DNA from: Pirellula staleyi DSM 6068 | Lineage (GTDB): Bacteria > Planctomycetota > Planctomycetia > Pirellulales > Pirellulaceae | Length of the DNA stretch: 32,000 nucleotides | Direction of reading: 5' to 3' | NCBI GenBank assembly: GCA_000025185.1 | Contig: CP001848.1 | Span: forward strand, 2,490,001-2,522,000 | In this document: piece by piece, positions 5,285 to 31,539 of the stretch | Numbering within the stretch: position 1 is the first letter of the stretch | Layout: every line of letters starts with the position of its first letter | Position numbers and translations under genes: made by a program | Notes under the pieces: generated by a model | Told to the model about the DNA's origin: nothing | Databases searched by the model: none | The model's input: the letters and a program-made list of their open reading frames with translations, nothing else

Positions 5285-5391
5285 TCAGTTGGATCATGCA
5301 GCCAGTGCGGAAGAAAACGCAAAAGAGTGTTGAGTCGCGTGAATCGAGCGGAACGGACTTTAATGTTTCAAGGGGATCAGAGTGTGAGCCC

Positions 5392-6168
5392 TTACCGCCG
5401 CGAATGCTCGCAATGACGAATCAGAATTTCGCCCCCGGGAAACGTTTGTTCCTCGGGAAGATGTATTTGGGACGAGCCATCGACGAGAGCACGGACGCGG
5501 CGTGTCCAGCGCGCGGGAGGTTCGCGTCCATCGGGAATGAGTTCGACCGGGAAGGTGGAACCAAAACCGAGGTCGACGCACAGGAGGTAAACCTCGAGCG
5601 CCTCGAAGTGACGCAGGGATTCGGTCAGCTGAGCTTGCTCCCAGAATCGTTCTGCGCGAGCAGGGGCCCCGAAGAACATCCCTTCGAGCGGCATCTCGAT
5701 CCAGCGCAATTGCCAGCGAGTACTGGCGTTGCTCAAAAGGTCGTCAATCCAGCAGACAATGGCGTAGCGAATGCCTAGCTGACGCTCGTCGAAAGCTGCT
5801 TCGGGATCGAGTCCATGATCGATAGCAATCAGATTTCCGAGGAGCGGACCGACTTGAGTTTGGGCATGCTCGATCTCGGCCCGAATGGCAGCTTCGTAGG
5901 CCGTTCGCAGGAGTGTGGCTTGCCGCGGTGAGTCGGCAAAATGCGTTGCAATCGACTTTGTCAAAGTTTCGCGACTGACTGTCCGCTGCAGCACTTGCGC
6001 CAGCTCGTCGATGACAAGTGGATCGACCGATTTACCTGCCAGCGCTTGCTGCAAAGCGGGTGTGAAATCGAGATCGGTGAAGACCGGCTCGCTTGATTCG
6101 AGCTTATCGAGCCAACCCCACGTGAGCTCCAAAATGGGATAGAGGGCGTCGAGTACGGAGGCTTGCAT
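5392..6168 (-). CDS. DotU (TssL cytoplasmic domain)-like protein lacking the usual C-terminal TM anchor
   Basis: 258-aa ORF. IRYAIVCWIDDLLSNASTRWQLRWIEMPLEGMFFGAPARAERFWEQ ... ALEVYLLCVDLGFGSTF (signature at about nt 5540..5610) matches the DotU pattern aRYALCAllDEavlnT.WG...W...sLl..ffg...gGe.FF..l......LLEvyylCLaLGFeGrY. No hydrophobic helix follows the signature. Confidence 0.55.
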   Translation of the reverse strand: MQASVLDALYPILELTWGWLDKLESSEPVFTDLDFTPALQQALAGKSVDPLVIDELAQVLQRTVSRETLTKSIATHFADSPRQATLLRTAYEAAIRAEIEHAQTQVGPLLGNLIAIDHGLDPEAAFDERQLGIRYAIVCWIDDLLSNASTRWQLRWIEMPLEGMFFGAPARAERFWEQAQLTESLRHFEALEVYLLCVDLGFGSTFPVELIPDGREPPARWTRRVRALVDGSSQIHLPEEQTFPGGEILIRHCEHSRR

Positions 6169-8453: not shown

Positions 8454-8723
8454 AAACGTATTTCCGGGGGAGATGCACGAAGGGGCGTTCTCTTTACAGC
8501 GCTCCGCTAGTGAACCACACTAGAGGGCTACCATCGAATCCGCTTCAGTGCGCGGAGTTGATGCCCGCCGATTCTGTCGCCAAACCTGGGCGGCAACAAG
8601 TTCCCACCCACTAGTCGCCTGCTTGAGCCGAACAGCTTTCCCTTTCCTGATGGGAATGTGACGCGCTTGGTCGTCGCCGTTTTTTGTTCCGATTGCACAC
8701 CTCTGCCCATGCAAAATTTCGCC

Positions 8724-11700: not shown

Positions 11701-13097
11701 TGCACGACGAGTCGCTCGTCGACACGCTAATCACCACGCTTGGTGCCGCTGATCTATCTCCGGCACGTCGCGCAGTCGTGATTCGCACCGTCGCTCGCCT
11801 GGGACTTCAGGAAGCTCCTTGGGATGGTAAGTGGTGGGGAACTCGTCCCGACACTTCGGGGCCCTATTACAAGACGGCGCCTTGGACGAAGACCGAGGCC
11901 GTCATCGCCGCCCTGACCGACCTGGCCGCCAAGAGCGACGCGTCGACCTCGCGCCTTGTCCTCGCCGAGATGTCGCGGCACAAACTTCAAGCCACTTCGC
12001 AGGCCGCATTGGCGGTGAAACTGGCCCAGGATGATCCGGCGTTTCTCGCCACCGCTGCCGAGATCATCACTGCAGCGAGCGACCTCCCCGACGGTGCCTC
12101 GCGACTGCTCGTCGATGTGGTGCGGGATGCCAAACTGGCTCAGCCGCTCCGCGCAAAAGCTCTGAAAAAACTGACCGGTTCGAGCGATCTGCAAGCCACG
12201 ATCGATGCCCTCGATGCGGTTGGCTCAGTGAGTCAGATTCAAGATCCTCTCGTGCAAACTCGCCTCGAATTTGCTCGTAGTGACAAGATGCGAGCTTCGC
12301 TTCACGATGCCCTCGCCCTCGCTGCTGCCGATCAACCAGCACGCAAGCAACTCGGCTATTTAACGCTGCTGGCGATCGAAGCGGATGGCAAAGCGAGCCC
12401 CGAAGATCGTGCGAAAGCCCGTGAGGCGATCACTGCCGCATGGACCAAAGAAGCTGCTGCTGAAGCAGCCCTTGTTGCGATTGGACAAAGCAAAAACGAG
12501 CAGTATGTGCTCGCCGTGACGTCGCAGCTGAAGAGCCCCAGCGAAACGGTTCGCAAAGCCGCCACGCTCGCAGCCGATCAACTTGCTATCGACCTCAACC
12601 CGGTCGGTGATGGTGCCAATCGTGTGACGCTTGCGGGTCAAGAAGTCGAAAAAGTGATTACGCAAGTTTCGGCGAAATCGGGCGATGCGAAACTCGGCAT
12701 GCGACTCTTTGCACGTCAAAGCTGCGTGCAGTGCCACACCGTCTCACCGACCGAAACCCCACGTGGACCATTCCTCGGCGGCATTACCCAGCGCTACAAA
12801 AAACATGAGTTGATCGAAAGCATCGTCAAGCCGAGCGCCAAGATTGCTCAAGGTTTCGAGACGCAGATCTTCGTGACCGTCGATGGCCTCGTAATCGAAG
12901 GTTTCGTCACTCGCGAAGCAGGTGATGAAGTCGAGATCCGCAATGCCAAGGGTGAGCAGATCATCCTCAAGCAGGAAGAGATCGAGCAGCGTAAGAAGGG
13001 GGAAGTCTCCGTGATGCCAGCCGGTCTCGTCGACAAGCTCACTGCCGACGAACTCGCTGCGATTCTTGCCTTCCTTGAAACATTACCTGGTAAATAA
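8724..13097 (+). CDS. Secreted ThuA-like / F5-8 type C (discoidin) / PVC-type membrane-bound-dehydrogenase beta-propeller / HEAT-repeat / cytochrome c (CxxCH) fusion protein
   Basis: The ORF is open from GTG 8658. The signal peptide MNSRNLLRTAIALVALLLPMLSHAEE starts at ATG 8724 (alternative ATG at 8709). ThuA motifs: IRALLITGGCCHDY, VVHCAMHCY, TRGLLWACD. Discoidin motifs: ALDGDLSTRWCA, QWLMVDLG. Propeller motifs: FQVTLFAAPPDVGYPTCLAASASGDVYVGVDENG, YGQRNIYDVAVDP. HEAT-like motifs: DPRVRLAAAIAIARRG, IVQHVAIRSL. Heme site CVQCH at 12723..12737, with a downstream SVMPAG. Confidence 0.85.
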   Translation: MNSRNLLRTAIALVALLLPMLSHAEEPAKSVKPIRALLITGGCCHDYTQQKKILPAGISERALVDWTIVHQGGSTTDTQIPFYENEKWYEGFDVVVHNECFAGVTDPSWTARILKAHREGVPAVVVHCAMHCYRDKTDAWFEFLGVTSHGHGANYPFDVINLEPKHPVMEGFGDKWSTPKGELYIIKKLWPTAKPLAHALSRDTKNNETVIWTNDYHGTRVFGTTIGHHNEEHSDPVFLNYMTRGLLWACDKLSPEYLVPSKEPKFDHVPDPTAKTPKGPMGTPTPAKGGATKEVMIPKNLAAGKTATASSHQQDNSVNHLPAKALDGDLSTRWCADGASVPQWLMVDLGEPQEVNGCSITWEMNERAYEYIVEASTDGKTWEKVVDATSKDPKPQDCEHKFNRPNTRYLRVTISGSSPGAWCSLYEFQVHSKELVKTTISASTQPRSIVTGGKNLLAGIKAPDGFQVTLFAAPPDVGYPTCLAASASGDVYVGVDENGSLDAKPNRGRVIKCVDSNQDGVADKFTSFASMDSPRGVVVDGTKVYVLHPPAITVYEDTNSDGVSDREERLVDGLGFDLKFRGADHTTNGMRLGIDGWLYIAVGDYGFLNAKGKDGTELQLHGGGVARVRTDGSGLEMVSYGQRNIYDVAVDPLLNCFTRDNTNDGGGWNVRLSHVVPTARYGYPSLYINFPDEIVQPLADYGGGSPCGSLFVHDDRLPAPFASALYTCDWGRSVVYRHPLKHDGSSYIAEQEPFVELPRPTDMDIDGQGNIYISSWRDGGFTYSNPNVGYVVAIRPEGIELAKVKAARDQSTEELVKQLASGSHVYRLEASRELVRRAENTADLREKLAALASSSAALEVRVAAISTLAQVGKSEAIPALVKLADDKSVREYAIRFLADHPELAKAAPADLFTKAAGDTDPRVRLAAAIAIARRGEVGLATALAPQLADSDKIVQHVAIRSLVKLAAREVALSALLKGTDSHTAAAGRVLQELHDESLVDTLITTLGAADLSPARRAVVIRTVARLGLQEAPWDGKWWGTRPDTSGPYYKTAPWTKTEAVIAALTDLAAKSDASTSRLVLAEMSRHKLQATSQAALAVKLAQDDPAFLATAAEIITAASDLPDGASRLLVDVVRDAKLAQPLRAKALKKLTGSSDLQATIDALDAVGSVSQIQDPLVQTRLEFARSDKMRASLHDALALAAADQPARKQLGYLTLLAIEADGKASPEDRAKAREAITAAWTKEAAAEAALVAIGQSKNEQYVLAVTSQLKSPSETVRKAATLAADQLAIDLNPVGDGANRVTLAGQEVEKVITQVSAKSGDAKLGMRLFARQSCVQCHTVSPTETPRGPFLGGITQRYKKHELIESIVKPSAKIAQGFETQIFVTVDGLVIEGFVTREAGDEVEIRNAKGEQIILKQEEIEQRKKGEVSVMPAGLVDKLTADELAAILAFLETLPGK

Positions 13098-19461: not shown

Positions 19462-20493
19462 CTAACTAGCCAGGGTTGGTTCGTCGTCTCCCAGTAGCAC
19501 GCGCCGCTGAGGATTTCGGTACAACACCTTCGCAAGCAGTTCCGGCGAACCTTGGAATCCGCTCGTGGGTCGTTCTTGATGCCAGTCGCGATGCGTCGGC
19601 ACCATGTCGGGATCGAGTGGCCAAGGATCGAACGGCTGATGACCCAAAGCGGCTGTCAGTTTGCTGCTGTCCATCGTCACATCGCCAGCACGCGGGGGAA
19701 TCGGTCCTGCCTCCAGCCGCATGCATCCCATCAAATGCTCGGGAGCATAGCCACCCACGCGGTTCACAATCTGGGCGATTTCATAAAGGCTTAAGCGACG
19801 CGTTCCACCAGCGTGATAGAGACCCGGCAATTCGCGCGCGAGAACTTCTTCCAGCAAGGGATTAAGACAATCGGTGTACGTCGGGGTTCGCAGCTCGTCG
19901 AAATAAAGTGTCGCCGGTCGATGTTTTTTGAAACGCGACTGAATCCAGTCGATCGCACCGGCATGGCCGTTAAAGCTCACCCCCATCGGCAAACTTATGC
20001 GCAGGATCGTAGCTTCGGATTTATCGGTCAGGATCAGCTGTTCTGCTTCGGCCATCGTACTGCCGTAGATCGTGACCGGATCGGGGGTCGCATCTTCCCG
20101 AATGTTTCCTGGGCCAACTCCGGAGAAGACAAGATCGATCGACAAGTGGACCAGTCGCGTGCTGGTGCCTCGCATCGCGCGTAGTAAGTTTTCAACACTC
20201 GTGATATTCACCCGGCGCGCCATCGAAGGATCGAGTTCGCAGCTCTTGAGTTTGCATGTCCCTTCGCAGTTGAGGACCGCTGCGAATTGATACTTCTCGA
20301 AGAGTCGCTGCACTTGCTCGAAATCGTCGAGATCGCAAGGAACGATGCCGGGGAGCGCGAGGGGCCAGTTATCGGTGCGGCGGACAGCAACAACCCGGTC
20401 GCCATAGCGGCGCCGAAGGTAGGAAAACGCGTTGTAGCCCGCGACACCCGCGACACCAGTTAGCAGCAAGGGGAGGGGAGGTGTGTACGTCAT
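19462..20493 (-). CDS. RmlD-like (dTDP-4-dehydrorhamnose reductase fold) extended-SDR protein with non-canonical catalytic residues
   Basis: Rossmann motif LLLTGVAGVAGYNAF sits directly after ATG 20493; the track ORF extends to 20610 and would overlap the upstream gene's end region. LVHLSIDLVFSG...IYGSTMAEAEQL aligns with RmlD VVHYSTDYVFPG...VYGKTKLAGEKAL. Confidence 0.75.
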   Translation of the reverse strand: MTYTPPLPLLLTGVAGVAGYNAFSYLRRRYGDRVVAVRRTDNWPLALPGIVPCDLDDFEQVQRLFEKYQFAAVLNCEGTCKLKSCELDPSMARRVNITSVENLLRAMRGTSTRLVHLSIDLVFSGVGPGNIREDATPDPVTIYGSTMAEAEQLILTDKSEATILRISLPMGVSFNGHAGAIDWIQSRFKKHRPATLYFDELRTPTYTDCLNPLLEEVLARELPGLYHAGGTRRLSLYEIAQIVNRVGGYAPEHLMGCMRLEAGPIPPRAGDVTMDSSKLTAALGHQPFDPWPLDPDMVPTHRDWHQERPTSGFQGSPELLAKVLYRNPQRRVLLGDDEPTLAS

Positions 20494-20545
20494 GAGGATC
20501 AAAAAACTGTCGTAAAGCGAGGGAAATGCGAGGATTTTGGCGGCG

Positions 20546-23392
20546 CTAGCGGATTCGGAGTCCGATGGGAAGCGACTCGCCAAAGACATGACGTTGTTGC
20601 AGCGAGTCAAGGTCTCCCCCTTGCTCGACGAGTTTCAAACTCTCGTCCGAAGCGCCACTGGCGGTGAGCTGAGCAGCGATTGTCGTGCGTAGTGCTCCGC
20701 TGATATCGCGAAATCGATCGTCGGTTTTTCGGGCGAGCTGAACGATCGCTAGTTGCAGTGGAACATCGAGTGGCGCGGTCGCTAGAAGTTTCTCAAGCCA
20801 GGTTGCGACTTCACTGGCGGGGAGCACCGTGTTGAGAGGGCCGTAGACTGGAACGCGGCTCCCGAGTCGGCCGATGCTCCAGGCCAGTGCTGCGCGGATG
20901 TTGGCGAGCTTGGGCCGACCGAGTAGTTCGAGGAACATCTGACCCAGGGTGATTTTGGTCGGGACATCTAGTAGTTCGAGCGATCCGACGAGCCTCACGA
21001 GTTCAATCGACTCGTGAGGCGAGAGCATCGGTTCGCTCGATTTGCCCGCCGATGTGGCCCGCTTATGAAAGGCTTTGAGCGTGGTGAGCATCGGCTGCGA
21101 GATCGCTTTTTGCTGACCAGCGGTGAAGCCTCCCGCAATGCGGCGCCACAAAATGAGGGACTCGGTGCGGCTGGTCGGAACACCATGCGCTAGTTTGCCA
21201 TGCACGAGTTTCCATGTTTCAGCTACACGCCAGTCGTCGACCGCCAGACCATACCCGGGGCGAAGTGCATAGCCAAGCAGATTGAGCCAGCGCGCTTCAT
21301 GCGCGGGCGAACGTCGTCGTCCCTCTTCGAGAGCGATGAGCGCCTCCCAAATGCGGCGCAAAAGCGAAGTGGGCCACTGCTCGCGATCGCTTCCAGCTGC
21401 TTCGACAAGTCGTTTGATCAGGCTGTCGGGGTGCTCGCGTCCTGTTCCAAACGTTCCCTCGAGTACGCTGTAAATCGCTTTCCAAGCGGATTCTTCGATA
21501 AAACCTTGCGCTTCAGCGGCCGATTCGTGCGCTTCAGCATCGGTTTCGGTGGCGGAGCGAACATCGAACTCAAGCCGCCACTGACGTTCTCCTTCGGCTT
21601 CACTGCACCACAGTTCGAGCGTGCCGATTTCGGTCAGCAGCACGTTGAGATGCACGGCAATCGTGCCACGCTCGCCGCGCGTGCGCGTTTTGAGGGCGGT
21701 TCGAATGGGTGGAAGCGCCGACATCTGTTCGGGATCGATCGGCAGCACCTCTCCCGCGCGATCAGCGAGTCGCAAGCTCGAAACGAAGAGTGGAAACTGA
21801 GCAGGCTGCGAGACCAAAAGCTCGAGCGCAGGCTGCTTGAGCGTAATGGTTTCACCCGGCTGTGCGCTACCCGGTACGAGGCAGATCGCTTGCGGCGGTG
21901 TCCCTTCGAGGCCGAGGTAATAGGAGCGGGCCAAACTTGCAGCGATCTTGACCCCGAGACCACGACGTACGAGTCCGTAGTAGGCTGCCCCGCGCGCCAC
22001 GGCGAGATCGAGTCGGTCGTTGTCGAGCAGACGAGGCTGCCAAGGTGTGGCACGATCGCCGGTGAACCACTCGCCGATCGTTTCGAGCAAACGGCTGACC
22101 AGCAGCGGCGAGCTGAAAACGCCACCGTTAAGGAGCACGAGGTCGGGCTTAGCGGGGTCGAGTGGTGGAGTTGGTATCGCTTGGGGATCTGCTGGCGGAT
22201 CGACGTCGGCATAGCGATGCCGCGCAAGGAACTGGGCTAAGTAGCGCGTGATGGCTGGGTCGGCTGCATAAGGGAGACCAAACTCCTGAAAACCGCTACG
22301 TCGCGCTTGAGGCCGCGCATCGCGGGGGACTTTCGGAAAGAAACCTTCGACCAATAAGGTCGCCGCTTCGTCGCGCGTAATCGTTGTTTGCAGCGAGCCA
22401 CCAATCAGTCGCGAACCACCCGAGGCGATGCTAATGGTGCGCTCGGTGGGGCTCGCTTGGCTAAGGAGTTCTTCTTTCGATGATCGGCTCGCGCGCAGCA
22501 GTGTGTCCCACTGACGAGCGTCGAGCCCTTTGGTCGCTGCGAGCTTTTCTTCGAGGTGCTTCGCTAGTGCGAGATCAAAATTGTCGCCGCCGAGGATCAA
22601 GTGGTCGCCGACCGCGATGCGATGCAGCTGAATCTGTCCCGTCTCATCCTGGCGAACTCGAATGAGGGTGAAGTCGGTCGTGCCACCACCGACGTCGCAG
22701 ATCAAGATTTTCTGACCGACCTTCAGCTCTGCCTGCCAGGTGTCGCGATGCTTGGCGATCCAGGCATAAAAAGCTGCTTGCGGTTCTTCGAGCAGGACGA
22801 CGCGCGGAAGTCCGGCACGCTGCGCTGCGCTGATCGTCAGTTCGCGAGCTACTTCGTCGAACGAAGCGGGAAGCGTCAAGACAATCTCTTGCTCTTCGAG
22901 TGGGGCCCCTTTGAACTGGTGATTCCACGCCGCGCGAATGTGAGCCAGGTAGCGGCTGCTCGCTTCGACGGGAGACATGCGCTCGACATCGGGGGCCGCT
23001 TGCCAAGGGAGGACATCGGCGAGCCGATCGACACCGCGGTGACAGAGCCACGATTTGGCCGACGAAATGACCCGTCCCGCCGAGATCGCGCCAGCATCGC
23101 GGGCCATCGCACCGACGATCGGCTGGGAATCGTCGTTCCACGGAAGTTTGCCGAGTGCCGCGCGATCGGCAGCGGGCTGATAGAGGAACGATGGGAGGGT
23201 GTCGAGTTTTTCGACGACATTGGCTGCGGTGAACTGTGGGATCGCGAGGACCTCGACGCGCGATGTATTGCGCTCGCAATCGACGTAGCAGACAGCGGAA
23301 TTCGTGGTACCCAGATCGATACCGACGACGTAGCGGCTAGGGGCTCGCTCGAGCGAAAGTTCGTCAGTCGTAGGTCCACCAAGCGCGCTCAC
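20546..23392 (-). CDS. Atypical Hsp70-family ATPase, long form (NBD + non-canonical beta-rich domain + ~330-aa C-terminal extension)
   Basis: 948-aa ORF with a GTG start at 23392..23390; no in-frame ATG precedes the NBD. Motifs: VVGIDLGTTNSAV, LLEEPQAAFYAW, CDVGGGTTDFTLIRV, LLNGGVFSSP. Shared paralog signature: GTLELWCSEAEGERQWRLEFDVR (about nt 21560..21625). Confidence 0.85.
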   Translation of the reverse strand: MSALGGPTTDELSLERAPSRYVVGIDLGTTNSAVCYVDCERNTSRVEVLAIPQFTAANVVEKLDTLPSFLYQPAADRAALGKLPWNDDSQPIVGAMARDAGAISAGRVISSAKSWLCHRGVDRLADVLPWQAAPDVERMSPVEASSRYLAHIRAAWNHQFKGAPLEEQEIVLTLPASFDEVARELTISAAQRAGLPRVVLLEEPQAAFYAWIAKHRDTWQAELKVGQKILICDVGGGTTDFTLIRVRQDETGQIQLHRIAVGDHLILGGDNFDLALAKHLEEKLAATKGLDARQWDTLLRASRSSKEELLSQASPTERTISIASGGSRLIGGSLQTTITRDEAATLLVEGFFPKVPRDARPQARRSGFQEFGLPYAADPAITRYLAQFLARHRYADVDPPADPQAIPTPPLDPAKPDLVLLNGGVFSSPLLVSRLLETIGEWFTGDRATPWQPRLLDNDRLDLAVARGAAYYGLVRRGLGVKIAASLARSYYLGLEGTPPQAICLVPGSAQPGETITLKQPALELLVSQPAQFPLFVSSLRLADRAGEVLPIDPEQMSALPPIRTALKTRTRGERGTIAVHLNVLLTEIGTLELWCSEAEGERQWRLEFDVRSATETDAEAHESAAEAQGFIEESAWKAIYSVLEGTFGTGREHPDSLIKRLVEAAGSDREQWPTSLLRRIWEALIALEEGRRRSPAHEARWLNLLGYALRPGYGLAVDDWRVAETWKLVHGKLAHGVPTSRTESLILWRRIAGGFTAGQQKAISQPMLTTLKAFHKRATSAGKSSEPMLSPHESIELVRLVGSLELLDVPTKITLGQMFLELLGRPKLANIRAALAWSIGRLGSRVPVYGPLNTVLPASEVATWLEKLLATAPLDVPLQLAIVQLARKTDDRFRDISGALRTTIAAQLTASGASDESLKLVEQGGDLDSLQQRHVFGESLPIGLRIR

Positions 23393-23395
23393 GCG

Positions 23396-25183
23396 TTAGT
23401 TCTCCGCGTCGTCGCGCACGCTGAATTCGAGTTTCCAGCGAGACTGATTTTTGGTTCCCACGCACCACAGTTCGAACACACCGAGCTCGGTGATGTGCGA
23501 CTGAAATTTCACCGGCACGTAGTCGTCGTCCATCGATTCTTCGCGCGCGAGCATCGTCTCGAGCGAATCGGTTTCGGCGATCTCGTCGTCGCTCCAATGC
23601 GTGACAAGTTCGCCCACAGCATCTTGCTTGCGCGTGGCTGAACTGAAAAAACGAAACGTCGCTTGCTCGCCTACCACCAGTCCGATTTCGCCCGAGGGAA
23701 CATCAGCCGTATTCCCTTCTTCCATTCCAAACGGAACGACACAAAGCGCGCGCAGCGGGCGCGGCTGACCTGGAATTGCTAAGCCCGATGATTCAATCCC
23801 GACGTAATAGCTGCGGGCTGTTCCACCCCGAATGCGAACGCCGCCGTGCAGTTTGGCCCAGCCGTAGTAAGCAGCGCCTCGCGCCACGCTGTGATCGAGA
23901 TCGTGAACGCCATCAAGAACGCGCGGCGGTGCATCGGGAGACCACTCGCCAATTACTTCCATCAAGCGATCGCGGAAAATCGGTGACTTAAATACGCCAC
24001 CGTTGAATAGTACGTGCGAAGGGCGAACCGGTTGCCCGTTGCTGCCGTGAGCTGTGAGGAACGCCGCGAGATGACGCGTGACAGCGGTGTCGGATTCAAA
24101 CGGCAGACCAATCTCTTGAAAGCCCGACATACGGCGCTTTTGCGGACGGTCGCTCGCCGAGCATTTGGGAAAGAAACCTTCGAGCAGCAACTGAGCGGCT
24201 GATTGTTTTTCGAGATCGATCGACACCGTGCCACCGATCAGTTTGCTGCCACGACCAAGAACACTCAAAGGATGCGTTTCAGCACCTCCGGGAGCGAGCA
24301 GCGCTTCTTTCGCTTGGCGACACATGTGCCATAGCGAAACGCTTTGCCAAGGGTCGAGCTTCACGTTCTTTTTGGCAAACTCTTCCGATGCGTGGAAGGC
24401 GAGGGCGAGATCCATGTTGTCGCCACCCACCAGCAGATGGTTGCCCACTGCGATGCGTCGCAGCACAAGCTCACCATTTTCTTCAGCGACACCAACGAGA
24501 GTGAAGTCGCTTGTGCCACCACCGACGTCGCAAACCAGCAGCGATTCTCCTACCTTCACACTGCGACGCCAGCGTTCTCCCATGGAGGTCAGCCACGCAT
24601 AGACAGCTGCTTGCGGTTCTTCGAGAAGGATCAAGTTCGCTGGCAGTCCCGCTGCGAGAGCTGCCTCGCGCGTTAGTTCACGAGCCGCCGCATCAAACGA
24701 AGCGGGAACGGTAAGAACGACAATCTGTTCGGCCAGCGGCGCGTCTGGAAACTTCTCCGACCAGATGCTCACCAGATGTTCTAGATAGCGGCGCGAAGCT
24801 GTGACCGGCGAAACCTTGGCGACCTCGGCTGGCGCTTGCCAAGGCAAGATCGGCTGATGGCGGTCGACCTTGCTGTGACAGAGCCAGCTCTTCGCGGCAG
24901 CCACGCTGCGCGTCGGATTTTCGGCCGAGAGTCTCCGAGCAATTTCACCAACGACATAGCCCGCCGGAGCTGCTCCGGGCATCGCATACGCAGGGGACTC
25001 TGCCTCGCCAGGAGGTGGTAAATAGAGGAATGACGGGAGCGAGCTGCGCGGCTCGACCACACCAGCTGCCACCAGCTGCGGAATCTCGAGAAGCTGAACG
25101 TCCGGCTTCTCGGTGCCGAGGTCGGCATAGGCGAGCACGCTGTTCGTGGTTCCGAGGTCGATGCCGATCACAAACTTGCTCAA
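23396..25183 (-). CDS. Atypical Hsp70-family ATPase, short form (NBD + non-canonical beta-rich C-terminal domain)
   Basis: 595-aa ORF with a TTG start at 25183..25181. The in-frame upstream codons back to the TAA at 25240..25238 contain no ATG, GTG or TTG. Motifs: FVIGIDLGTTNSVL, LLEEPQAAVYAW, CDVGGGTSDFTLVGV, LFNGGVFKSP. It ends GVFELWCVGTKNQSRWKLEFSVRDDAEN. Confidence 0.88.
   Translation of the reverse strand: MSKFVIGIDLGTTNSVLAYADLGTEKPDVQLLEIPQLVAAGVVEPRSSLPSFLYLPPPGEAESPAYAMPGAAPAGYVVGEIARRLSAENPTRSVAAAKSWLCHSKVDRHQPILPWQAPAEVAKVSPVTASRRYLEHLVSIWSEKFPDAPLAEQIVVLTVPASFDAAARELTREAALAAGLPANLILLEEPQAAVYAWLTSMGERWRRSVKVGESLLVCDVGGGTSDFTLVGVAEENGELVLRRIAVGNHLLVGGDNMDLALAFHASEEFAKKNVKLDPWQSVSLWHMCRQAKEALLAPGGAETHPLSVLGRGSKLIGGTVSIDLEKQSAAQLLLEGFFPKCSASDRPQKRRMSGFQEIGLPFESDTAVTRHLAAFLTAHGSNGQPVRPSHVLFNGGVFKSPIFRDRLMEVIGEWSPDAPPRVLDGVHDLDHSVARGAAYYGWAKLHGGVRIRGGTARSYYVGIESSGLAIPGQPRPLRALCVVPFGMEEGNTADVPSGEIGLVVGEQATFRFFSSATRKQDAVGELVTHWSDDEIAETDSLETMLAREESMDDDYVPVKFQSHITELGVFELWCVGTKNQSRWKLEFSVRDDAEN
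23402..23405 (-). promoter_or_regulatory. Shine-Dalgarno-like GGAG, 9 nt upstream of the GTG start of the long Hsp70-like gene (inside the 3' end of the upstream gene)
   Basis: The minus strand reads gcGGAGaacTAAcgcGTG. Confidence 0.4.
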
Positions 25184-25192
25184 GGTGCCAAT

Positions 25193-25196
25193 CTCC
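25193..25196 (-). promoter_or_regulatory. Shine-Dalgarno-like GGAG, 9 nt upstream of the TTG start of the short Hsp70-like gene
   Basis: The minus strand reads tcgccGGAGattggcaccTTG. Confidence 0.4.
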
Positions 25197-25237
25197 GGCG
25201 AATAGGGACGAGAACGGGGCGCAAGAAGTGCAGCCGC

Positions 25238-25801
25238 TTACTTGGTTTCCACTTCTGCAGGAGCGATCACTTTGGCAGCCGCTGCGGAACCGGTGTAGGT
25301 TGGCAAGTTGGTCGACTTTGCCTCCCACCCACCATGCACCAGTGTTCCTTCGAGTGCGGCCGTCGCTCCCAAACTTCCCACCACTTTGTACCGACCTGGA
25401 TCGTAGCCCGGCGGAACGCTGACCGTCGAACCCTCTTCACCAGCCGCGATCCGCTGGAGGGAAAAGAGCCGATCGAGGACAGCCGCCGAGTCCTTCAGAA
25501 CCCCCCGAGCAGCGGCTCCGATTTGGGCATCGGAATAGTCAGATAAAGGCTCTTGGATCAGATCCACCAGACGAGCTTCGCGCTGCAGCGTAGCTAAAAG
25601 TGCAATCGCATCACTCTGAAGTGGGGTTTTGGGCTCGGGTTTAGGGGCCGGTGTCGATGTTGCAGAATGCTGCTGCGTTTTCCCTTGCTCGGTGACTTTT
25701 GGCAACATGTTGCCTTGGAGCGCCGTGGCGACACGACCGGCAGTATCGCCGCTCGCTAGGCATTTAAAAAAAGCTGCAAAGGCAGTAGAGATTCGTCCCA
25801 T
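25238..25801 (-). CDS. DUF2760 domain-containing protein
   Basis: 187-aa ORF. N-terminus MGRISTAFAAFFKCL. Core: SDAIALLATLQREARLVDLIQEPLSDYSDAQIGAAARGVLKDSAAVLDRLFSL ... EEGSTVSVPPGYD ... GTLVHGGWEA. This fits my memory of the DUF2760 consensus (LQreGRlvDFl.ed...ysDaqvGAAaR.vh ... h.GW.a). Confidence 0.75.
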   Translation of the reverse strand: MGRISTAFAAFFKCLASGDTAGRVATALQGNMLPKVTEQGKTQQHSATSTPAPKPEPKTPLQSDAIALLATLQREARLVDLIQEPLSDYSDAQIGAAARGVLKDSAAVLDRLFSLQRIAAGEEGSTVSVPPGYDPGRYKVVGSLGATAALEGTLVHGGWEAKSTNLPTYTGSAAAAKVIAPAEVETK

Positions 25802-26310
25802 CTGGTTTTCTCACAACAGCTTGCGCTTAATTGCTATGTTTTGTGTGGAATTTGACTAAGCAGGGAACAGAGCGAAAATAGAGGGTCTGGACCGGCTTTT
25901 GCATCCACTTGCCCAGGTCAGGCGAAATCGGCCGCAAAAGAGCCTTCCAAAGCTCCCCCAGGCAGGTTTCGCGAGACCTCAGTACAACGCCCGCGATGGG
26001 GAGGTGTCAACCGTCCCTCGGATCCCGGCGCTGCTGAGCCCCTTAAGCCGAACCGCAGAAGCCGCAAATGTCGGCCAAACGCATGACTCGGTTGCAGGGG
26101 ACCTGTAAGGTGAATGGATCGGCCAGCGGCCCATCGGCGGGGTGGTGAACCCACCACTTCCCTCAGATTGGCAGCAGTTGGCCTGCATGGCGAGATCGCT
26201 CGACTGGTGACCGGAACCACGAGTCGCGCGGATGACCTTCGTCGTGATGATGCCCCCGCAGCATCGCACGGACGATGTGGCTGGAATACGAGAAGAGCAC
26301 TCTTTACTAG

Positions 26311-29300
26311 ATGACAACGATGATCCACCGACTACTCTCCGCCGGAAGTCTGTTTGGAAAAGTACGCCAGCTCTGGAAGCGTCGCCGCGACTTGGATCGT
26401 CGGCGGACCGCTTCGACTCGTACCCTTTCCGGTGGTCTGGTCGAACGGCTTGAAGACCGCTCGATGATGGCGATTGACGTCGGGAACCAATTGCCGGTTC
26501 CTGATCTCGACAACAGCGTGTCGTACTACGCCGACTATTCGATGGTGGGGAGCAATGTCGCCGGGGGAGATTCGGCTGAAGGAGAAGCTGGTTCCGACGC
26601 CGCTGAAGGTGAGCCCGCCAATAACCTTGTGCAGTTTGCCAAAAATCTCGCCGCTGCTGGCGTGAAGTTCTACGGCGCTGCCTGGAATGCCGACACCACA
26701 GCTCAGCGCAACTTGTTTGGCGATGGTGGCCAGTTCTTGCCCTTCATCGAAGTGACGAACAACGATCGCAGCGTCAACTCCGTTGCGACCACCAATAACA
26801 TCACCGTCTATCCAACGTGGGTATTTCCAGACAACTCGCGTCTCGAAGGGATTGCTTCGCTCGAAACGCTCGCCACACGCAGCGGTGTTGCGATTCCACA
26901 ATCCGAGAATCCGACGTTCGCCAACATCGGCACACAGAACCTGCTCGGTGGCTCACCCCTATGGGTTGGCATCGATGGCTATGATCCCAACGGCGGCGCA
27001 CTCACCTACACCGTCACGAGCGACAACCCTCTCGTCACCGCTTCGATCAGCCCCAGCACCAATCGCAGCGTAGCGATGAACGTGCAAGGCTTCGGCACGA
27101 TGGTTTTCCAGCTGTTCGATCACCTTGCCCCACGTGCCACGAATCGCATCGCTGAACTCGCGAATGCCGGATTCTACAACGACACCGCCACCAACACGGT
27201 CGGTTTCCACCGCATCACCCGTCAGTCGTCCCTCACCGTCATCCAAGGTGGTGATCCCCTCGGCAACGGCACCGGTGGTTCGAACCTGCCCGACTTCGAC
27301 GATCAATTCAACTTCGATTTGCAGCACAACTCGGCTGGCCTGCTCTCGATGGCCAAGAGCTCCGACGACACCAACAACTCACAGTTCTTTGTGCTCGGCG
27401 CATCGGCTCGCCACCTCGACTTTAATCACACCGTCTTCGGCATGCTGACCGAAGGGGACGCCGTTCGCGCTGCCATCAACGCCGCAGCCACCAACACCAG
27501 CGACGCCCCACTCGTTCCCATCATTTTCGACACCGTCCAGATCATTAACGACACGGAAAACGCCGTCCTCAACCTGAAGGCTGCTGAAGGTGCGACAGGG
27601 AGTGCCAACGTCACCGTCACGGTCACCGATGCCCAGGGCAATTCGTACCAGCAAACCTTTGCGGTGAATGTCACCCCCGACACCATCAATGGCGGTCCGT
27701 TCCTGTCGGAAATCGATACCGTTCGCACCACCACCGGCACCAACGCGACATTGCAACTCGTCGGCAACGATGTGGAAGGGAACGCCCTCTACTTCGACGC
27801 CGTGAAGCCTTCCGACGAGACGGTCAACTACACGGTGACCGTCAACAACGACACCGGCTTGGTCACCATTACTCCCCCCTCCGGTTTTGTGGGGAGCTTT
27901 GAAGTGCTGGTGGGTGTCCGCGCCGCTGCGGGCTCGAATACCAGCGACGCTTTCGACACGCAGCGTGTGACGGTGGAAGTGGCTCCCGTCGCTCCGGCAC
28001 TTCCCGACCTTGCGGATGCTTCCGATAGCGGCGTTTCCAACACCGACAACATCACGAACACCGCTTCGCACACGTTCACCATCGGAGGCGTCACCAGTGG
28101 TGCCGTCGTCAAGCTCTATCGCGGCAGCACCTTGCTCGGCCAAGCCACGGCCAGCGGCACCAGCGTACAAATCACCACGACAAACCTCGCCTCGTTTGCC
28201 GATGGAGTGCAATCGATCACCGCCACGCAAACCGTCGGCGGTGTCGAGAGCGTAGCATCCGCTGTGCTGAGCGTGACGCTCGATCGCTTGGCTCCTGTGG
28301 CCCTGACGTCGACCGCTCCCACCGCTGCGGAAGTCGGAATCAATCTGAACTACAACGCTCAGCATCCCGATGAATCGACAACGGGCTTTCGCTATTCGCT
28401 CACGACTCCTCCCACCGGCGCCACCATCGATGCCGTGACCGGCGTTGTCTCGTGGGTCCCCACCGCCGACCAAGTCGGCACGCGTAGTTTCGGCGTTGTT
28501 GCCACCGATGCTGCCGGTAACATTCGGACACAGTCGGTCACCGTCAGTGTCACGCAGCCTGTCGTGCAGTTGGTCGATGTGATCTTGCGAGTGGTCGACG
28601 CCAACGGCAATGAGATCACCAGCATCGCCAACGGTGGCACGTTCTTCTTGCAGATGGTGGTCAAGGATTTGCGGCCAGGTGGTAGCGATGCTGGCGTCTT
28701 CTCGGCCTATGCCGATGTGGTGTGGAATGCCGCGAAGGCTAACGCCACAGGCTCGCTCGTCTATGGATCGTCGTATACCTCGGCTCGCAGCGGCGTGGTT
28801 TCCGCTGGCTTGATCGACGAAGTTGGCGGCACTGCAAGTCTCTCCCCTCTGGGGCCAGGCGAGTTCGAGCTCTTCAAAATCCAGATGCAGGCCACTCAGT
28901 CCGGCACTATTACGTTCAGCTCAAACCCAGCGGACAATAACTCGGCCCGACCTGTGTTGCTCTACAACTTGTCCGACGATCAATTGACCGATCAGACCCG
29001 CTATGGCTCGGTTTCGCTGAATGTCGATCTGCCGTTTGATGCGGTTAACGACACGTTCAATGTCAACGAAGACTCGAACAACTTCACGCTTAATCCCCTG
29101 CAAAACGACACGATTGTGTCGGGCAGCGGCAGCGTGCTGACGATCGATTCGGTCGGCACCACCTCCAGTGGCGGCACCGTGACGGTGGCGGGTAACGGAC
29201 TCTCGCTCCTCTATACACCTGCTGCGAATTTCGTCGGCACTGAGACCTTCACCTACACCGTGAAGAATCAAAATGGCGACACCGACACTGCGACCATCAC

Positions 29301-31539
29301 GGTGCAGGTGGCCAATGTCAACGATCCACCGGTCGCGACGAACGATACCTTCACGGTCGCTGAAAACTCGGCAAACACCACACTCGATGTTCTCGGCAAC
29401 GATCTGCAAACCCCCGATACCGGCGAAACTCTTCGCGTGCAGAGTGTGTCGGCTGGTTCCAACGGCGGCACATTGTCGATCGGCGGTTCAGGTTCGCACG
29501 TGGTCTATCGTCCTGCCAACGGCTACATCGGTACCGAGACCTTCACCTACGTGGTGAGCGACGGTAATGGTGGAACGGCCACAGGGACCGTGACGGTGAA
29601 CGTCACCAATGCCAACGACAATCCTGTTGCTGTGACCGATCAAGTGACCGTGGCCGAAGATAGCGACATCACGCTCATCAACGTGCTGGCCAACGATACC
29701 ACCGGCAACGACACCGGCGAAACGCTCACTGTCACTGCGGTTGGAGTCGGTTCGAAAGGTGGCACCATCACCATCGTCTCGGGTGGTACCGGTGTGAACT
29801 ACAAACCGGCTGCCAACTTCCAAGGTTCGGAAACGTTCACCTACACCATCAGCGACGGCAATGGCGGCGTGGCTTCGGGAACGGTGATCGTCACCGTCAC
29901 GAACTCGAACGATAACCCCACCGCTGTGGCCGATGCAGTGCAAGGTTTCAAGAACACCACCAGCGAGTTCAACCCGCTGGCCAACGATACTTCGGCACCC
30001 GATCCTACGGAAACCCTCACGATCACCACCGTGACGCAAGGGACCGCTGGCGGTACGGTCGCGATCACGCAAAACGGCACACGGGTGAACTACACTCCTG
30101 CGTCGAACTTCAGTGGCACCGACACCTTCACCTACACCATCAGCGATGGCAACGGTGGTACGGCAACGCAAACAGTCACGGTCAATGTCCTCGAGTTCAT
30201 CCCGAGCCAGTTGCGTGGCTATGTCTACTTCGATTCGAACAACACTGGTGTTCGCGAAGAAGGTGAATCGCCAATCTCGGGCATTACGATCACCCTGACA
30301 GGAACGGCCACTGGTGGCACCGCTGTCAACCGCACCACAACGACCTCGACGACCGGTTTCTATGAGTTCACGAACCTGGCACCAGGCACCTACACCATCA
30401 CCCAAACGCAGCCTGCGTTTTTGCTCGATGGTCGTGAGCAGATCGGATCGCAAGGTGGAACGAGCACGGTCAACGACAAAATCGTGATCAACCTGGCTCA
30501 GAACACGAATGGTCAGAACAACAACTTCGGCGAACTCGGTCTGCAGGTTCAGCATCGCACGATCAACGACCTGTTTGGTTCGAGCTTCCGCACCAATGCA
30601 GTCGCTTCGGTCAGCACGACCGCTGGCAGCAGCTTCTTTGCTCCTCGCGGAACCGCTTGGGCAGGCTATACCAACGGAACGGCTGAACTTGTCAACAACA
30701 GCACGCAGCTGCGACTGACGATCACTAATCCAGCTGGTCAGCGGGTGCAAACCACACTGGCAATCACCGACAAGCGGCTGACCCTCCTCGCCTCGCAAAC
30801 CGGCGGCAAGCTGTTCCGCATCAATGCGTTGCCCACCTCGCTCGGCTTCACGGTGGTCACCACCAGCACAGCTAACACCAGCGGCGGTGAAGGTGAACCA
30901 GCAGAAGGGGAATACACGCCAAATGCATCGGCGATGGCAGTCCCCTCGATGGATGATGCCGAAGGGGAGCCGACTTCGAGCGACGACGATGCTTTGGTGC
31001 AAGCCACTTCGGTGGTCGAGGAAGAAGGGAACCTCGCTGATGACTCGCTCATCTATGCTACGAGCGGGGCCCCCGAGAGCAGCAGCACACTCTCGGCCAT
31101 TGGGGAGTTCAACACGCCTATCGTGTCGGCCCTCGATGTAGGCGAAGGAGAACCCGCCGCGATTGTGAGTGCAGCTTCGCGGAGCATCAGCAGCCAGCCG
31201 AGCAGCACGACTCTCGCAAGTCTCAATCCACTGCTGACAATCGAAGTGGGCTACAGTGCCTCGCTCGAACCATCGGCCGCGCCACTGCGGGGCTCGATCC
31301 TCGAAGATTTGCTCGACAATGACGACGATAGTGCAAGCGGCTCATCGGCCGGTTCACTGCCGGGTGCTTCGGTCGAAGAATCGTCGAAGTTGATCGACGA
31401 GGCATTCTACGAAAGTGAAAAGGACGAGCTCGATTGGTCGCTCGACCTGTGGGAGGAAGAACTCGCTAGTGACGATGATTACGAGGCGGCTCTCGCCATC
31501 GTGTTGCTCGAACTAGCTCAAGAACTCGCGGCGATCTAA
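26311..31539 (+). CDS. Giant (1742 aa) secreted adhesin-like protein: N-terminal LE-R---A motif, cyclophilin-type PPIase domain, multiple Ig/cadherin-like domains, 4 tandem ~98-aa repeats, SdrD-B/Cna-B-like domain, acidic low-complexity tail
   Basis: Cyclophilin motifs lie at about nt 27070..27490: GTMVFQLFDHLAPRATNRI, FHRITRQSSLTVIQGGDPLGNGTGGS, GLLSMAKSSDDTNNSQFFV, HTVFGML. Dystroglycan/cadherin-like 'putative Ig' module: YSLTTPPTGATIDAVTGVVSWVPTADQVG (about 28390..28520). Big-like module: SDSGVSNTDNITN... . Tandem repeats: 29038..30213. SdrD-B-like module: LRGYVYFDSNNTGVREEGESPISGITITLTG...GFYEFTNLAPGTYTITQ (about 30210..30470). Confidence 0.9.
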   Translation: MTTMIHRLLSAGSLFGKVRQLWKRRRDLDRRRTASTRTLSGGLVERLEDRSMMAIDVGNQLPVPDLDNSVSYYADYSMVGSNVAGGDSAEGEAGSDAAEGEPANNLVQFAKNLAAAGVKFYGAAWNADTTAQRNLFGDGGQFLPFIEVTNNDRSVNSVATTNNITVYPTWVFPDNSRLEGIASLETLATRSGVAIPQSENPTFANIGTQNLLGGSPLWVGIDGYDPNGGALTYTVTSDNPLVTASISPSTNRSVAMNVQGFGTMVFQLFDHLAPRATNRIAELANAGFYNDTATNTVGFHRITRQSSLTVIQGGDPLGNGTGGSNLPDFDDQFNFDLQHNSAGLLSMAKSSDDTNNSQFFVLGASARHLDFNHTVFGMLTEGDAVRAAINAAATNTSDAPLVPIIFDTVQIINDTENAVLNLKAAEGATGSANVTVTVTDAQGNSYQQTFAVNVTPDTINGGPFLSEIDTVRTTTGTNATLQLVGNDVEGNALYFDAVKPSDETVNYTVTVNNDTGLVTITPPSGFVGSFEVLVGVRAAAGSNTSDAFDTQRVTVEVAPVAPALPDLADASDSGVSNTDNITNTASHTFTIGGVTSGAVVKLYRGSTLLGQATASGTSVQITTTNLASFADGVQSITATQTVGGVESVASAVLSVTLDRLAPVALTSTAPTAAEVGINLNYNAQHPDESTTGFRYSLTTPPTGATIDAVTGVVSWVPTADQVGTRSFGVVATDAAGNIRTQSVTVSVTQPVVQLVDVILRVVDANGNEITSIANGGTFFLQMVVKDLRPGGSDAGVFSAYADVVWNAAKANATGSLVYGSSYTSARSGVVSAGLIDEVGGTASLSPLGPGEFELFKIQMQATQSGTITFSSNPADNNSARPVLLYNLSDDQLTDQTRYGSVSLNVDLPFDAVNDTFNVNEDSNNFTLNPLQNDTIVSGSGSVLTIDSVGTTSSGGTVTVAGNGLSLLYTPAANFVGTETFTYTVKNQNGDTDTATITVQVANVNDPPVATNDTFTVAENSANTTLDVLGNDLQTPDTGETLRVQSVSAGSNGGTLSIGGSGSHVVYRPANGYIGTETFTYVVSDGNGGTATGTVTVNVTNANDNPVAVTDQVTVAEDSDITLINVLANDTTGNDTGETLTVTAVGVGSKGGTITIVSGGTGVNYKPAANFQGSETFTYTISDGNGGVASGTVIVTVTNSNDNPTAVADAVQGFKNTTSEFNPLANDTSAPDPTETLTITTVTQGTAGGTVAITQNGTRVNYTPASNFSGTDTFTYTISDGNGGTATQTVTVNVLEFIPSQLRGYVYFDSNNTGVREEGESPISGITITLTGTATGGTAVNRTTTTSTTGFYEFTNLAPGTYTITQTQPAFLLDGREQIGSQGGTSTVNDKIVINLAQNTNGQNNNFGELGLQVQHRTINDLFGSSFRTNAVASVSTTAGSSFFAPRGTAWAGYTNGTAELVNNSTQLRLTITNPAGQRVQTTLAITDKRLTLLASQTGGKLFRINALPTSLGFTVVTTSTANTSGGEGEPAEGEYTPNASAMAVPSMDDAEGEPTSSDDDALVQATSVVEEEGNLADDSLIYATSGAPESSSTLSAIGEFNTPIVSALDVGEGEPAAIVSAASRSISSQPSSTTLASLNPLLTIEVGYSASLEPSAAPLRGSILEDLLDNDDDSASGSSAGSLPGASVEESSKLIDEAFYESEKDELDWSLDLWEEELASDDDYEAALAIVLLELAQELAAI
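29038..30213 (+). repeat. Four in-frame tandem repeats, exact 294-nt (98-aa) period ('tandem-95'/cadherin-like VCBS-type units) inside the giant gene
   Basis: The anchor codons (N/T/A)D of the unit motif x-V-A-x-(N/T/A)-D-x-(F/V)-x-V-x-E-(D/N)S fall at 29047, 29341, 29635 and 29929, exactly 294 nt apart. Each unit ends (T/S)ETFTYT(V/I)(S/K)DGNGG(T/V)A(T/S)GTVTVNVTNxNDxP. The end coordinate is approximate. Confidence 0.85.

Follow-up and report, generated by a model that had tools for sequence, protein, structure and literature searches.

A widespread Hsp70-type module that joins a DUF2760 protein to divergent Hsp70-like paralogs, a candidate J-independent chaperone system

Three linked genes and the conservation of their order

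The 32,000-nucleotide (nt) stretch of Pirellula staleyi DSM 6068 DNA analysed here as a whole, called the window, holds three genes that fill positions 20546-25801 on the minus strand, where the open reading frame (ORF) list places a gene for a DUF2760 protein of 187 amino acids (aa) directly before genes for two Hsp70-like proteins of 595 and 948 aa, here called the short and the long paralog (Table 1). The module occurs widely among bacteria and represents an as yet uncharacterised form of Hsp70 system, whose partner protein has a fold without known counterpart. Sequence comparison identifies the three ORFs as real genes and not chance reading frames, because the 187-aa protein matches a P. 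staleyi DSM 6068 database protein at 100% identity and its homologues number in the thousands. At 43% identity over 615 aa (E 1e-155), the two Hsp70-like proteins are true paralogs across both the nucleotide-binding domain (NBD) and the beta domain behind it; with the ORF list and the Pfam assignments, this bears out an initial annotation of the window that had placed a DUF2760 protein directly upstream of two paralogous Hsp70-like ATPases. Literature searches by name found no functional study and, among the searchable papers, none that names DUF2760, DUF3731, PF10816 or PF12531.

The gap of only 3 nt between the two Hsp70-like genes suggests translational coupling. A scan of the locus for consensus promoters and terminators gave site counts no higher than chance. 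Domain scans revealed no DnaJ, GrpE or HscB domain in window ORFs of at least 150 aa, and a six-frame phmmer search of the 32-kb window with E. coli DnaJ and the J-domain returned nothing (best J-domain E 1.7), so that the absence of dnaJ, grpE and hscB-like genes noted initially was upheld.

Conservation of the linkage was evaluated by scanning one genome per GTDB species with a diverse DUF2760 alignment, which revealed at least 580 stretches encoding a relative; the best 80 of these, from Planctomycetota, Verrucomicrobiota, Lentisphaeria, Kiritimatiellia and Fibrobacterota, were examined, with neighbours scored by phmmer and arrangements counted over the 58 loci having at least 6 kb downstream. 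A short-type Hsp70 gene directly followed DUF2760 in 49 of these 58 loci (84%) and, in an independent metagenome scan, in 31 of 37 (84%). DUF2760, the short Hsp70 and the long Hsp70 with its DUF3731 domain stood on one strand in this order at 19 loci and at two more in which the short gene is split by frameshifts, giving a contiguous full triad at 21 of the 58 loci (~36%) from Fibrobacterota and the Planctomycetota-Verrucomicrobiota-Chlamydiota (PVC) group, while 28 loci carried the pair of DUF2760 and short Hsp70 only. DUF2760 was also encoded on 11 of 72,556 plasmids, mostly megaplasmids or chromids, with Burkholderia, Caballeronia, Bradyrhizobium, a Comamonadaceae member and Thiodictyon as hosts; all 11 of these proteobacterial plasmids or chromids have the pair and 10 have the complete triad in the same order, two of the triad-bearing ones being conjugative Bradyrhizobium plasmids. 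The triad is present in Burkholderia cenocepacia and B. multivorans replicons, and in Burkholderia, Caballeronia and Chromatiaceae successive genes overlap by 4 nt at stop and start. On Chromatiaceae chromosomes the pair was seen at two of two loci, amid housekeeping surroundings (holC, pepA and lptF in Thiohalocapsa) and with the third gene absent from the locus. In Anatilimnocola aggregata and one further genome, of 7.8 Mb, the long paralog stands alone elsewhere in the genome, and a sister species has only the pair at the syntenic site.

Clustering of neighbours across 91 loci revealed no fourth recurrent family, no J-protein or GrpE gene and no dnaK linkage. The triad order is kept in Planctomycetota, Verrucomicrobiota, Fibrobacterota and the proteobacterial plasmids and chromids, and orthologues are ~60% identical across Pirellulales. 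Linkage of DUF2760 with Hsp70 is thus conserved in genomes, metagenomes and plasmids alike. The module is real and self-contained, as initially described, but its invariant core is the pair of DUF2760 and an Hsp70 of ~600 aa, which the long paralog often joins but can also be parted from, so that the description as a fixed three-gene unit needed revision. Because the linkage is kept across distant phyla, with overlapping reading frames, it argues strongly for a functional connection of the linked genes.

Table 1. Features of the module and of neighbouring genes in window positions (AF2, AlphaFold2; pLDDT, predicted local distance difference test; SBD, substrate-binding domain)
Feature	Positions	Strand	Properties
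DUF2760 gene, first of module	25238..25801	-	187-aa ORF; Pfam PF10816
DUF2760 two N-terminal helices (aa 2-28)	25718..25798	-	AF2 helices 2-16 and 18-28, pLDDT 87-92
DUF2760 Pro/Ala-rich linker (aa 30-60)	25622..25714	-	predicted disordered; pLDDT 46-66; variable length, poorly conserved
DUF2760 C-domain (aa 62-185)	25247..25618	-	three helices and four short strands (AF2)
Spacer, DUF2760 gene to 595-aa gene	25184..25237	-	54 nt; GGAG 9 nt before TTG start
Short Hsp70-like paralog	23396..25183	-	595 aa, TTG start; NBD and beta-domain, without helical lid
595-aa NBD (~aa 1-445)	23849..25183	-	D9, T12, T13, K98, E189, D219, G221-223, T224, D226 intact
595-aa divergent linker (GGVRIRGG) and SBD-beta-like domain (~aa 446-595)	23399..23848	-	by homology to the long paralog's modelled sandwich
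Gap, 595-aa stop to 948-aa GTG start	23393..23395	-	3 nt (TAA cgc GTG), from the sequence
Long Hsp70-like paralog	20546..23392	-	948 aa, GTG start; NBD, beta-sandwich, helical DUF3731 domain
948-aa NBD (aa 20-476)	21965..23335	-	D26, T29, T30, K113, E203, D233, G235-237, T238, D240 intact
948-aa insert motif (aa 364-376)	about 22265-22303	-	RRSGFQE(F/I)GLP(Y/F)
948-aa nine-strand beta-sandwich (aa 490-609)	21566..21925	-	SBD-beta-like; AF2, pLDDT mostly 72-83
948-aa all-helical C-terminal region (aa 611-947)	20552..21562	-	16 helices (AF2)
948-aa DUF3731/PF12531 (aa 695-947)	20552..21310	-	264.9 bits, cut-off 25, E 1.2e-78
Divergent intergenic region, module to 1742-aa gene	25802..26310	.	509 nt; presumed promoter region
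1742-aa protein gene	26311-31539	+	cyclophilin domain with Big_9, cadherin-like and SdrD repeats
RmlD-like reductase gene	19462-20610	-	longest ORF
Adjacent genes with PF14331 and PF09850 domains	3749-6168	-	IcmF-related N-terminal and DotU domains
1479-aa protein gene	8658-13097	+	ThuA, F5/8 type C, DUF7133, HEAT repeats, cytochrome c domain

Two divergent Hsp70-like ATPases

PF00012 matches both large proteins over the NBD only (56.4 and 74.1 bits, cut-off 20.6), their identity to DnaK is only 22-24%, and the NCBIfam DnaK/HscA equivalogs score 42-90 bits (best 74 and 90) against cut-offs of 620-1019. The motifs first quoted for them, namely phosphate-1 (GIDLGTTNS), phosphate-2 (DVGGGT(S/T)DFT), LLEEPQAA, the adenosine motif NGGVF(K/S)SP and a shared C-terminal signature, are all present. 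With catalytic residues assigned by alignment to E. coli DnaK, the equivalents of D8, T11, T12, K70, E171, D194, G196-198, T199 and D201 are conserved without exception in all 56 short-type and all 21 long-type orthologues compared. Because all catalytic residues are invariant in both paralog families, ATP hydrolysis is plausible, as had been proposed, and both paralogs are probably active ATPases.

The elements through which DnaK is coupled to J-proteins fared differently. DnaK contacts J-domains on its NBD through R167, N170 and T173. The position of R167 is V or I in the short type and V in 12 of 21 long-type sequences, that of N170 is an invariant E in both types, and that of T173 is Q, invariantly in the short type and in 19 of 21 of the long type. 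The hydrophobic linker of DnaK, 389-VLLLD-393, is replaced by GV(R/K)IAA in the long type and by GGVRIRGG in the short type, where R450, I451, G453 and G454 are invariant. Since the linker and all three contact positions are replaced, the alignments indicate that the J-coupling elements are lost in both paralogs; in Hsp110, a similar linker divergence is tied to loss of J-stimulation (PMC13580251).

Both paralogs also have, inserted before the adenosine motif, an invariant RRSGFQE(F/I)GLP(Y/F) motif with an extra helix after it. In the long paralog G367-L373 of this motif are invariant, yet the AF2 pLDDT is below 50 at aa 366-375. The insert may be a partner-binding element.

Evaluating the region behind the NBD, which was initially held not to look like a DnaK SBD plus lid, suggested that this is so at the sequence level only. 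The AF2 model of the long paralog (mean pLDDT 75.1) contains a nine-strand sandwich, and when it was compared with the PDB by Foldseek, the 50 best matches were all Hsp70 chains that include the SBD, aligned over 630-820 columns, with full-length DnaK and BiP at the top and the more numerous NBD-only chains ranking lower. A lid-truncated, domain-docked BiP gave a template-modelling score (TM-score), normalised to the target, of 0.66-0.70 at a root-mean-square deviation of ~7 Å, and Sse1/Hsp110 was also among the matches (E about 1e-15), with DnaK and BiP matching better. Because the modelled sandwich and the Foldseek matches span the SBD of DnaK and BiP, the post-NBD region likely folds like Hsp70 SBD-beta. 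A profile of 43 beta-domains found no match among all PDB sequences at E up to 10, and hhalign of the beta-domain with E. coli DnaK aa 385-638 gave a probability of 0.3%. By-eye likenesses of GIES to GIET at strand 1 and of ELWC...WKLEF to DnaK beta7-8 had no statistical support and were not used as evidence. Between the two paralogs the beta-domain is homologous at 32-36% identity, and their common signature, ELWC...W(K/R)LEF(S/D)VR, once taken for a separate private feature, is simply the last two strands of the modelled SBD-beta-like sandwich.

The paralogs differ in what follows the sandwich, and here the initial annotation had missed both the helical C-terminus of the long one and the complete lack of a lid in the short one. 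The short paralog ends 5 residues past the last conserved strand and has no helical lid (SBD-alpha), whereas the long paralog has ~330 helical residues, including DUF3731, where a lid of ~100 residues would be. PF12531, described as 'DNA-K related protein', matches at full length (profile positions 1-248 of 248), C-terminal to the HSP70 domain. A profile of the long paralog's helical region and DUF3731 returned only noise from PDB sequences.

The DUF2760 protein and the surroundings of the module

PF10816 matches the 187-aa protein over profile positions 2-124 of 124 (142.7 bits, cut-off 25, E 6.6e-42), Pfam and NCBIfam place nothing besides DUF2760 on it, and the family comprises ~1,600 clusters at 50% identity. 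In its AF2 model (mean pLDDT 85.6), two N-terminal helices are joined by the Pro/Ala-rich linker to a compact C-domain. The first helix is hydrophobic or amphipathic, is conserved as G(R/S)xxxAF(R/K)AFFxxLF in family alignments and has a mean hydrophobic moment of 0.43 vs 0.21 in control windows. The C-domain is modelled at pLDDT 89-98 (about 93 over most of it), except for about 66 at aa 141-150, and its invariant positions include Q73, R74, R77, D80 and an H156-x-G-W159 motif. Foldseek found no structural relative of the C-domain in the PDB (best E 2.4) or among viral models (best E 0.33), and DUF2760 profile and single-sequence searches of PDB sequences gave no match. Structure, profile and domain searches ruled out a cryptic J-domain (with its HPD loop), GrpE or BAG.

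The N-terminus of the family is modular. In 12 of 150 family representatives (P0273, P0280, P0284, P0296, P0298, P0304, P0335, P0350, P0352, P0366, P0246 and P0249; also at locus L104) the N-terminal helix is replaced by one to four predicted transmembrane (TM) helices, followed by the usual Pro/Ala linker and C-domain, and in Chromatiaceae the N-termini are longer, Trp/Arg-rich and hydrophobic. The metagenome scan gave a single locus of the TM type, on a short contig. One representative (P0261) is a MarR-DUF2760 fusion with MarR set directly on the C-domain, without the N-terminal helix and linker, and on the Bradyrhizobium barranii plasmid pCC829_3 the triad is immediately preceded by a MarR-family gene (L083 8483-8767). 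J-domain proteins, too, join a constant domain to varied targeting modules, an example being the membrane-anchored DjlA. Because a constant C-domain, a flexible tether and interchangeable N-terminal modules resemble this design, DUF2760 may be a usually membrane-associated adaptor of the short Hsp70. As the gene that the short Hsp70 gene so regularly follows, often with 4-nt overlaps, DUF2760 is the best candidate for its dedicated partner. The earlier proposal of a dedicated cofactor or adaptor keeps its footing to this extent, while an obligatory complex of all three proteins is not required by the linkage.

Several observations concern the surroundings of the module. Taken at its longest ORF, the RmlD-like gene shares 65 nt with the 3' end of the long paralog gene, its true start probably lying further downstream, near the methionine of MTYTPP.... 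This gene and HrpA were rejected as module members, because a search of the 80 related loci turned up nothing that corresponds to them. The 1742-aa gene is divergent from the module, and in Anatilimnocola sp. NA78 a giant gene of this kind has the same orientation to the DUF2760 pair. Such genes lie at L098 215-5260 and L006 3398-9565, and the type has four members in the neighbour-cluster set, the window included, which is local synteny confined to Pirellulaceae. Elsewhere in the window, the PF14331/PF09850 gene pair resembles type VI secretion membrane-complex components, here in a planctomycete, and the 1479-aa protein combines five kinds of domain (Table 1). In two Chromatiaceae genomes a small DUF2934 gene lies divergently upstream of the pair (L094 8481-8747; L096 8461-8811), and on the plasmid of Bradyrhizobium sp. 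CB82, in that one locus only, groES-groEL lies ~1 kb downstream of the triad (L087 15390-17434).

A possible J-independent machine, its alternatives and its relatives

Drawing on the observed domain architectures, intact catalytic residues, lost J-coupling determinants, gene linkage and modular DUF2760 N-termini, we favour, with slightly less than even confidence, a reading in which the module is a specialised, self-contained, J-independent Hsp70-type machine with DUF2760 as the dedicated adaptor or non-J co-chaperone of two ATP-hydrolysing paralogs. Physical interaction, membrane localisation, heterodimerisation and client identity of the module proteins are matters that we infer. DUF2760 would sit at the cytoplasmic face of the membrane via its hydrophobic N-terminal helix, or via true TM segments in some relatives, and the flexible Pro/Ala-rich linker would present the conserved C-domain to the cytoplasm, where this domain would recruit or regulate the lidless 595-aa Hsp70. 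The beta-sandwich of the latter would clamp a client segment in an ATP-dependent cycle. The 948-aa paralog would act, by pairing of the NBDs, as a regulator or second subunit, much as Hsp110 or Ssz1 does with eukaryotic Hsp70, and its sandwich, capped in the lid's place by the large helical DUF3731 domain, may provide a lid or client platform in trans. Paralog pairing of this kind has precedent in the Hsp70-Hsp110 and Ssb-Ssz1 systems (PMC13580251).

Several points weigh against this reading. The N-terminal helix, moderate in its amphipathicity, could be an Hsp70-binding pseudo-substrate instead of a membrane anchor, and there are few variants with TM helices or MarR. The paralogs could also be served in trans by canonical DnaJ and GrpE from genes outside the locus. 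DUF2760 stands alone at 9 of the 58 loci, and in Chromatiaceae and most PVC genomes the third gene either lies apart or is missing at the locus, so that an obligatory three-subunit complex is not required. Because the beta-domain has no sequence-level similarity to the DnaK SBD, peptide clamping is drawn from a predicted fold of moderate confidence. A bolder form of the proposal, which we regard as doubtful, would make the DUF2760 C-domain a new class of Hsp70 co-chaperone, a J-domain analogue of unrelated fold that is mounted on varied targeting elements (amphipathic helix, TM or MarR) and drives a J-independent, two-paralog membrane cycle in hundreds of species of at least five phyla.

The divergence of the linker and the J-contact residues, as in Hsp110, together with the Foldseek match to Sse1/Hsp110, could also speak for a different role, in which the paralogs are auxiliary co-chaperones of canonical DnaK that bind its NBD as Hsp110-like exchange or disaggregation-boosting factors, with DUF2760 as a regulator or targeting factor. 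A 2026 review proposes this role for bacterial NBD-containing DnaK derivatives, which it notes to be confined to genomes encoding a bona fide DnaK as well (PMC13580251), and groES-groEL follows the triad at a distance of ~1 kb on one Bradyrhizobium plasmid. We nevertheless consider it unlikely that the module is such a helper: a paralog pair of its own and a conserved partner, travelling as a unit on plasmids, point to a self-contained system, both paralogs keep the catalytic residues and a conserved, predicted beta-sandwich whereas Hsp110 exchange is not strictly hydrolysis-dependent, no dnaK linkage was seen in the 91 loci, and DnaK and BiP outmatch Hsp110 in Foldseek.

DnaK itself acts on sigma-32 or HspR by sequestering and releasing them, and the module might be a regulatory switch of this sort, its ATPases sequestering and releasing a signalling protein or transcription factor via DUF2760, with the envelope, exopolysaccharide or biofilm as output. 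This we judge unlikely, and it overlaps with the J-independent machine that we favour and does not exclude it. The MarR-DUF2760 fusion and the MarR gene upstream of a Bradyrhizobium triad fit a switch, but they are a single fusion and a single neighbourhood, and the PVC loci have no recurring regulator gene. The Hsp70-like StkA of Myxococcus xanthus is a negative regulator of exopolysaccharide (PMC4319316), but the stk locus differs in gene content.

A further pointer to regulation comes from Vibrio cholerae, where VC1373 and VC1374, both annotated 'DnaK-related protein', form an operon with VC1375 and are listed among genes repressed in the biofilm (PMC9201469), and where the quorum-sensing regulator HapR was found, in vivo and in vitro, to bind between VC1375 and VC1376 and to activate the VC1375 promoter (PMC10328515). 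VC1373-1375 is a three-gene operon whose small first gene, VC1375, carries the promoter, and the annotation wording is that of the Pfam DUF3731 description. We think it quite likely that VC1373-1375 is a counterpart of the triad, by gene order and annotation wording and not by sequence, a homologue search seeded with gammaproteobacterial DUF2760 having returned Chromatiaceae only. The data known for it are of expression and regulation only, namely HapR activation and biofilm repression.

Very unlikely is a mobile anti-phage or conflict system with an Hsp70-like ATPase that senses infection, to which one could relate the conjugative Bradyrhizobium plasmids bearing the triad, the pair on Thiodictyon plasmid pTs485 amid anti-phage-annotated DUF1156, DUF3780 and PLD genes, VapC and a TIR gene (L084 1-8406, 13004-15100), the Hsp70-like NBD/SBD proteins with HEAT-like helices in CoCoNuT restriction systems (PMC11090510) and a weak PADLOC match to the candidate PDC-M61B (E 8.6e-6): that PADLOC-DB v2 match covers ~90 NBD residues of the long paralog (22.7 bits, aa 224-311), DUF2760 and the short paralog have no such match, effector domains of the nuclease, TIR, pore or protease kind are absent from the module and do not consistently adjoin it, DUF2760 occurs on so few of the 72,556 plasmids and in no phage record, PHROGs is unsupportive, the identity across Pirellulales and the housekeeping surroundings are typical of vertically kept cellular functions, and the ATPase motifs of CnuD are degenerate (PMC11090510) whereas those of our paralogs are intact.

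The J-independent machine would matter for how Hsp70 systems are understood, and it is open to direct study. As a rule, J-domain proteins and nucleotide-exchange factors drive the ATPase cycle of Hsp70s. Should DUF2760 turn out to activate or adapt them without a J-domain, a third kind of Hsp70 cofactor would be added, and the module, if the reading is true, would be a bacterial example of the paralog pairing that yielded Hsp110 and the ribosome-associated complex (RAC) in eukaryotes. Its composition is defined and testable, with two paralogs whose catalytic sites are intact and one small partner for whose fold neither the PDB nor the viral models gave a relative, and its gene order is conserved from planctomycetes to Burkholderia. 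Burkholderia and probably Vibrio cholerae would offer tractable hosts.

Compared with DnaK-DnaJ-GrpE, the paralogs share an actin-fold NBD with all catalytic residues, the order of NBD, linker and, as modelled, beta-sandwich, and best structural matches to DnaK and BiP themselves, but the lid is absent in the short one or swapped for a ~330-aa DUF3731 helical domain in the long one, no J-protein or GrpE gene lies at the module, and the partner it does have is without a known fold relative. DjlA is a membrane-anchored J-protein that recruits DnaK to the inner membrane and in which a flexible linker joins a membrane element at the N-terminus to a J-domain at the C-terminus. The layout proposed for DUF2760, with an N-terminal membrane element, linker and Hsp70-interacting C-domain, is alike, whereas its C-domain fold is without known relatives and is not a J-domain, and its contacts with membrane and Hsp70 are proposals. 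In E. coli, hscC adjoins the J-protein genes djlC-djlB. As in HscC/DjlC/DjlB and HscA-HscB, a divergent Hsp70 with a short or absent lid stands beside its own small partner gene, HscA and HscC having a shortened lid (PMC13580251), but the partners in those systems are J-domain proteins, whereas DUF2760 lacks a J-domain fold or HPD loop, and the module has two Hsp70 paralogs instead of one.

At the level of architecture, the 948-aa protein, with NBD, SBD-like domain and long helical region, resembles CnuD/CnuCD of the Type III McrBC-related CoCoNuT systems, in which an Hsp70-like NBD/SBD is fused to HEAT-like helical repeats (PMC11090510). CnuD differs in having degenerate ATPase motifs and in accompanying McrB and McrC homologues and HEPN nucleases (PMC11090510); no McrB-like GTPase, McrC (DUF2357) or HEPN was found in the window ORFs or was recurrent across the 91 loci. 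Likeness to the M. xanthus stk locus is limited to one Hsp70-like protein of about 540 aa and an exopolysaccharide regulatory phenotype. The initial annotation had named stkA and stkB as adjacent DnaK-like genes, which was mistaken, since StkA is a 540-aa DnaK homologue that is not heat-induced, StkB is an SCP2-like protein of 141 aa and StkC has 89 aa (PMC4319316); stk has neither a second Hsp70 nor DUF2760, and the gene downstream of our module is the RmlD-like reductase gene. The eukaryotic pairs Hsp70-Hsp110 (Sse1) and Ssb-Ssz1-Zuotin (RAC) are not co-encoded and have no DUF2760-like part, and a heterodimer in bacteria, where both catalytic sets are full, is a proposal; like the module, these pairs combine two Hsp70 paralogs, and in the larger or atypical member the linker has diverged and the C-terminus is extended (PMC13580251).

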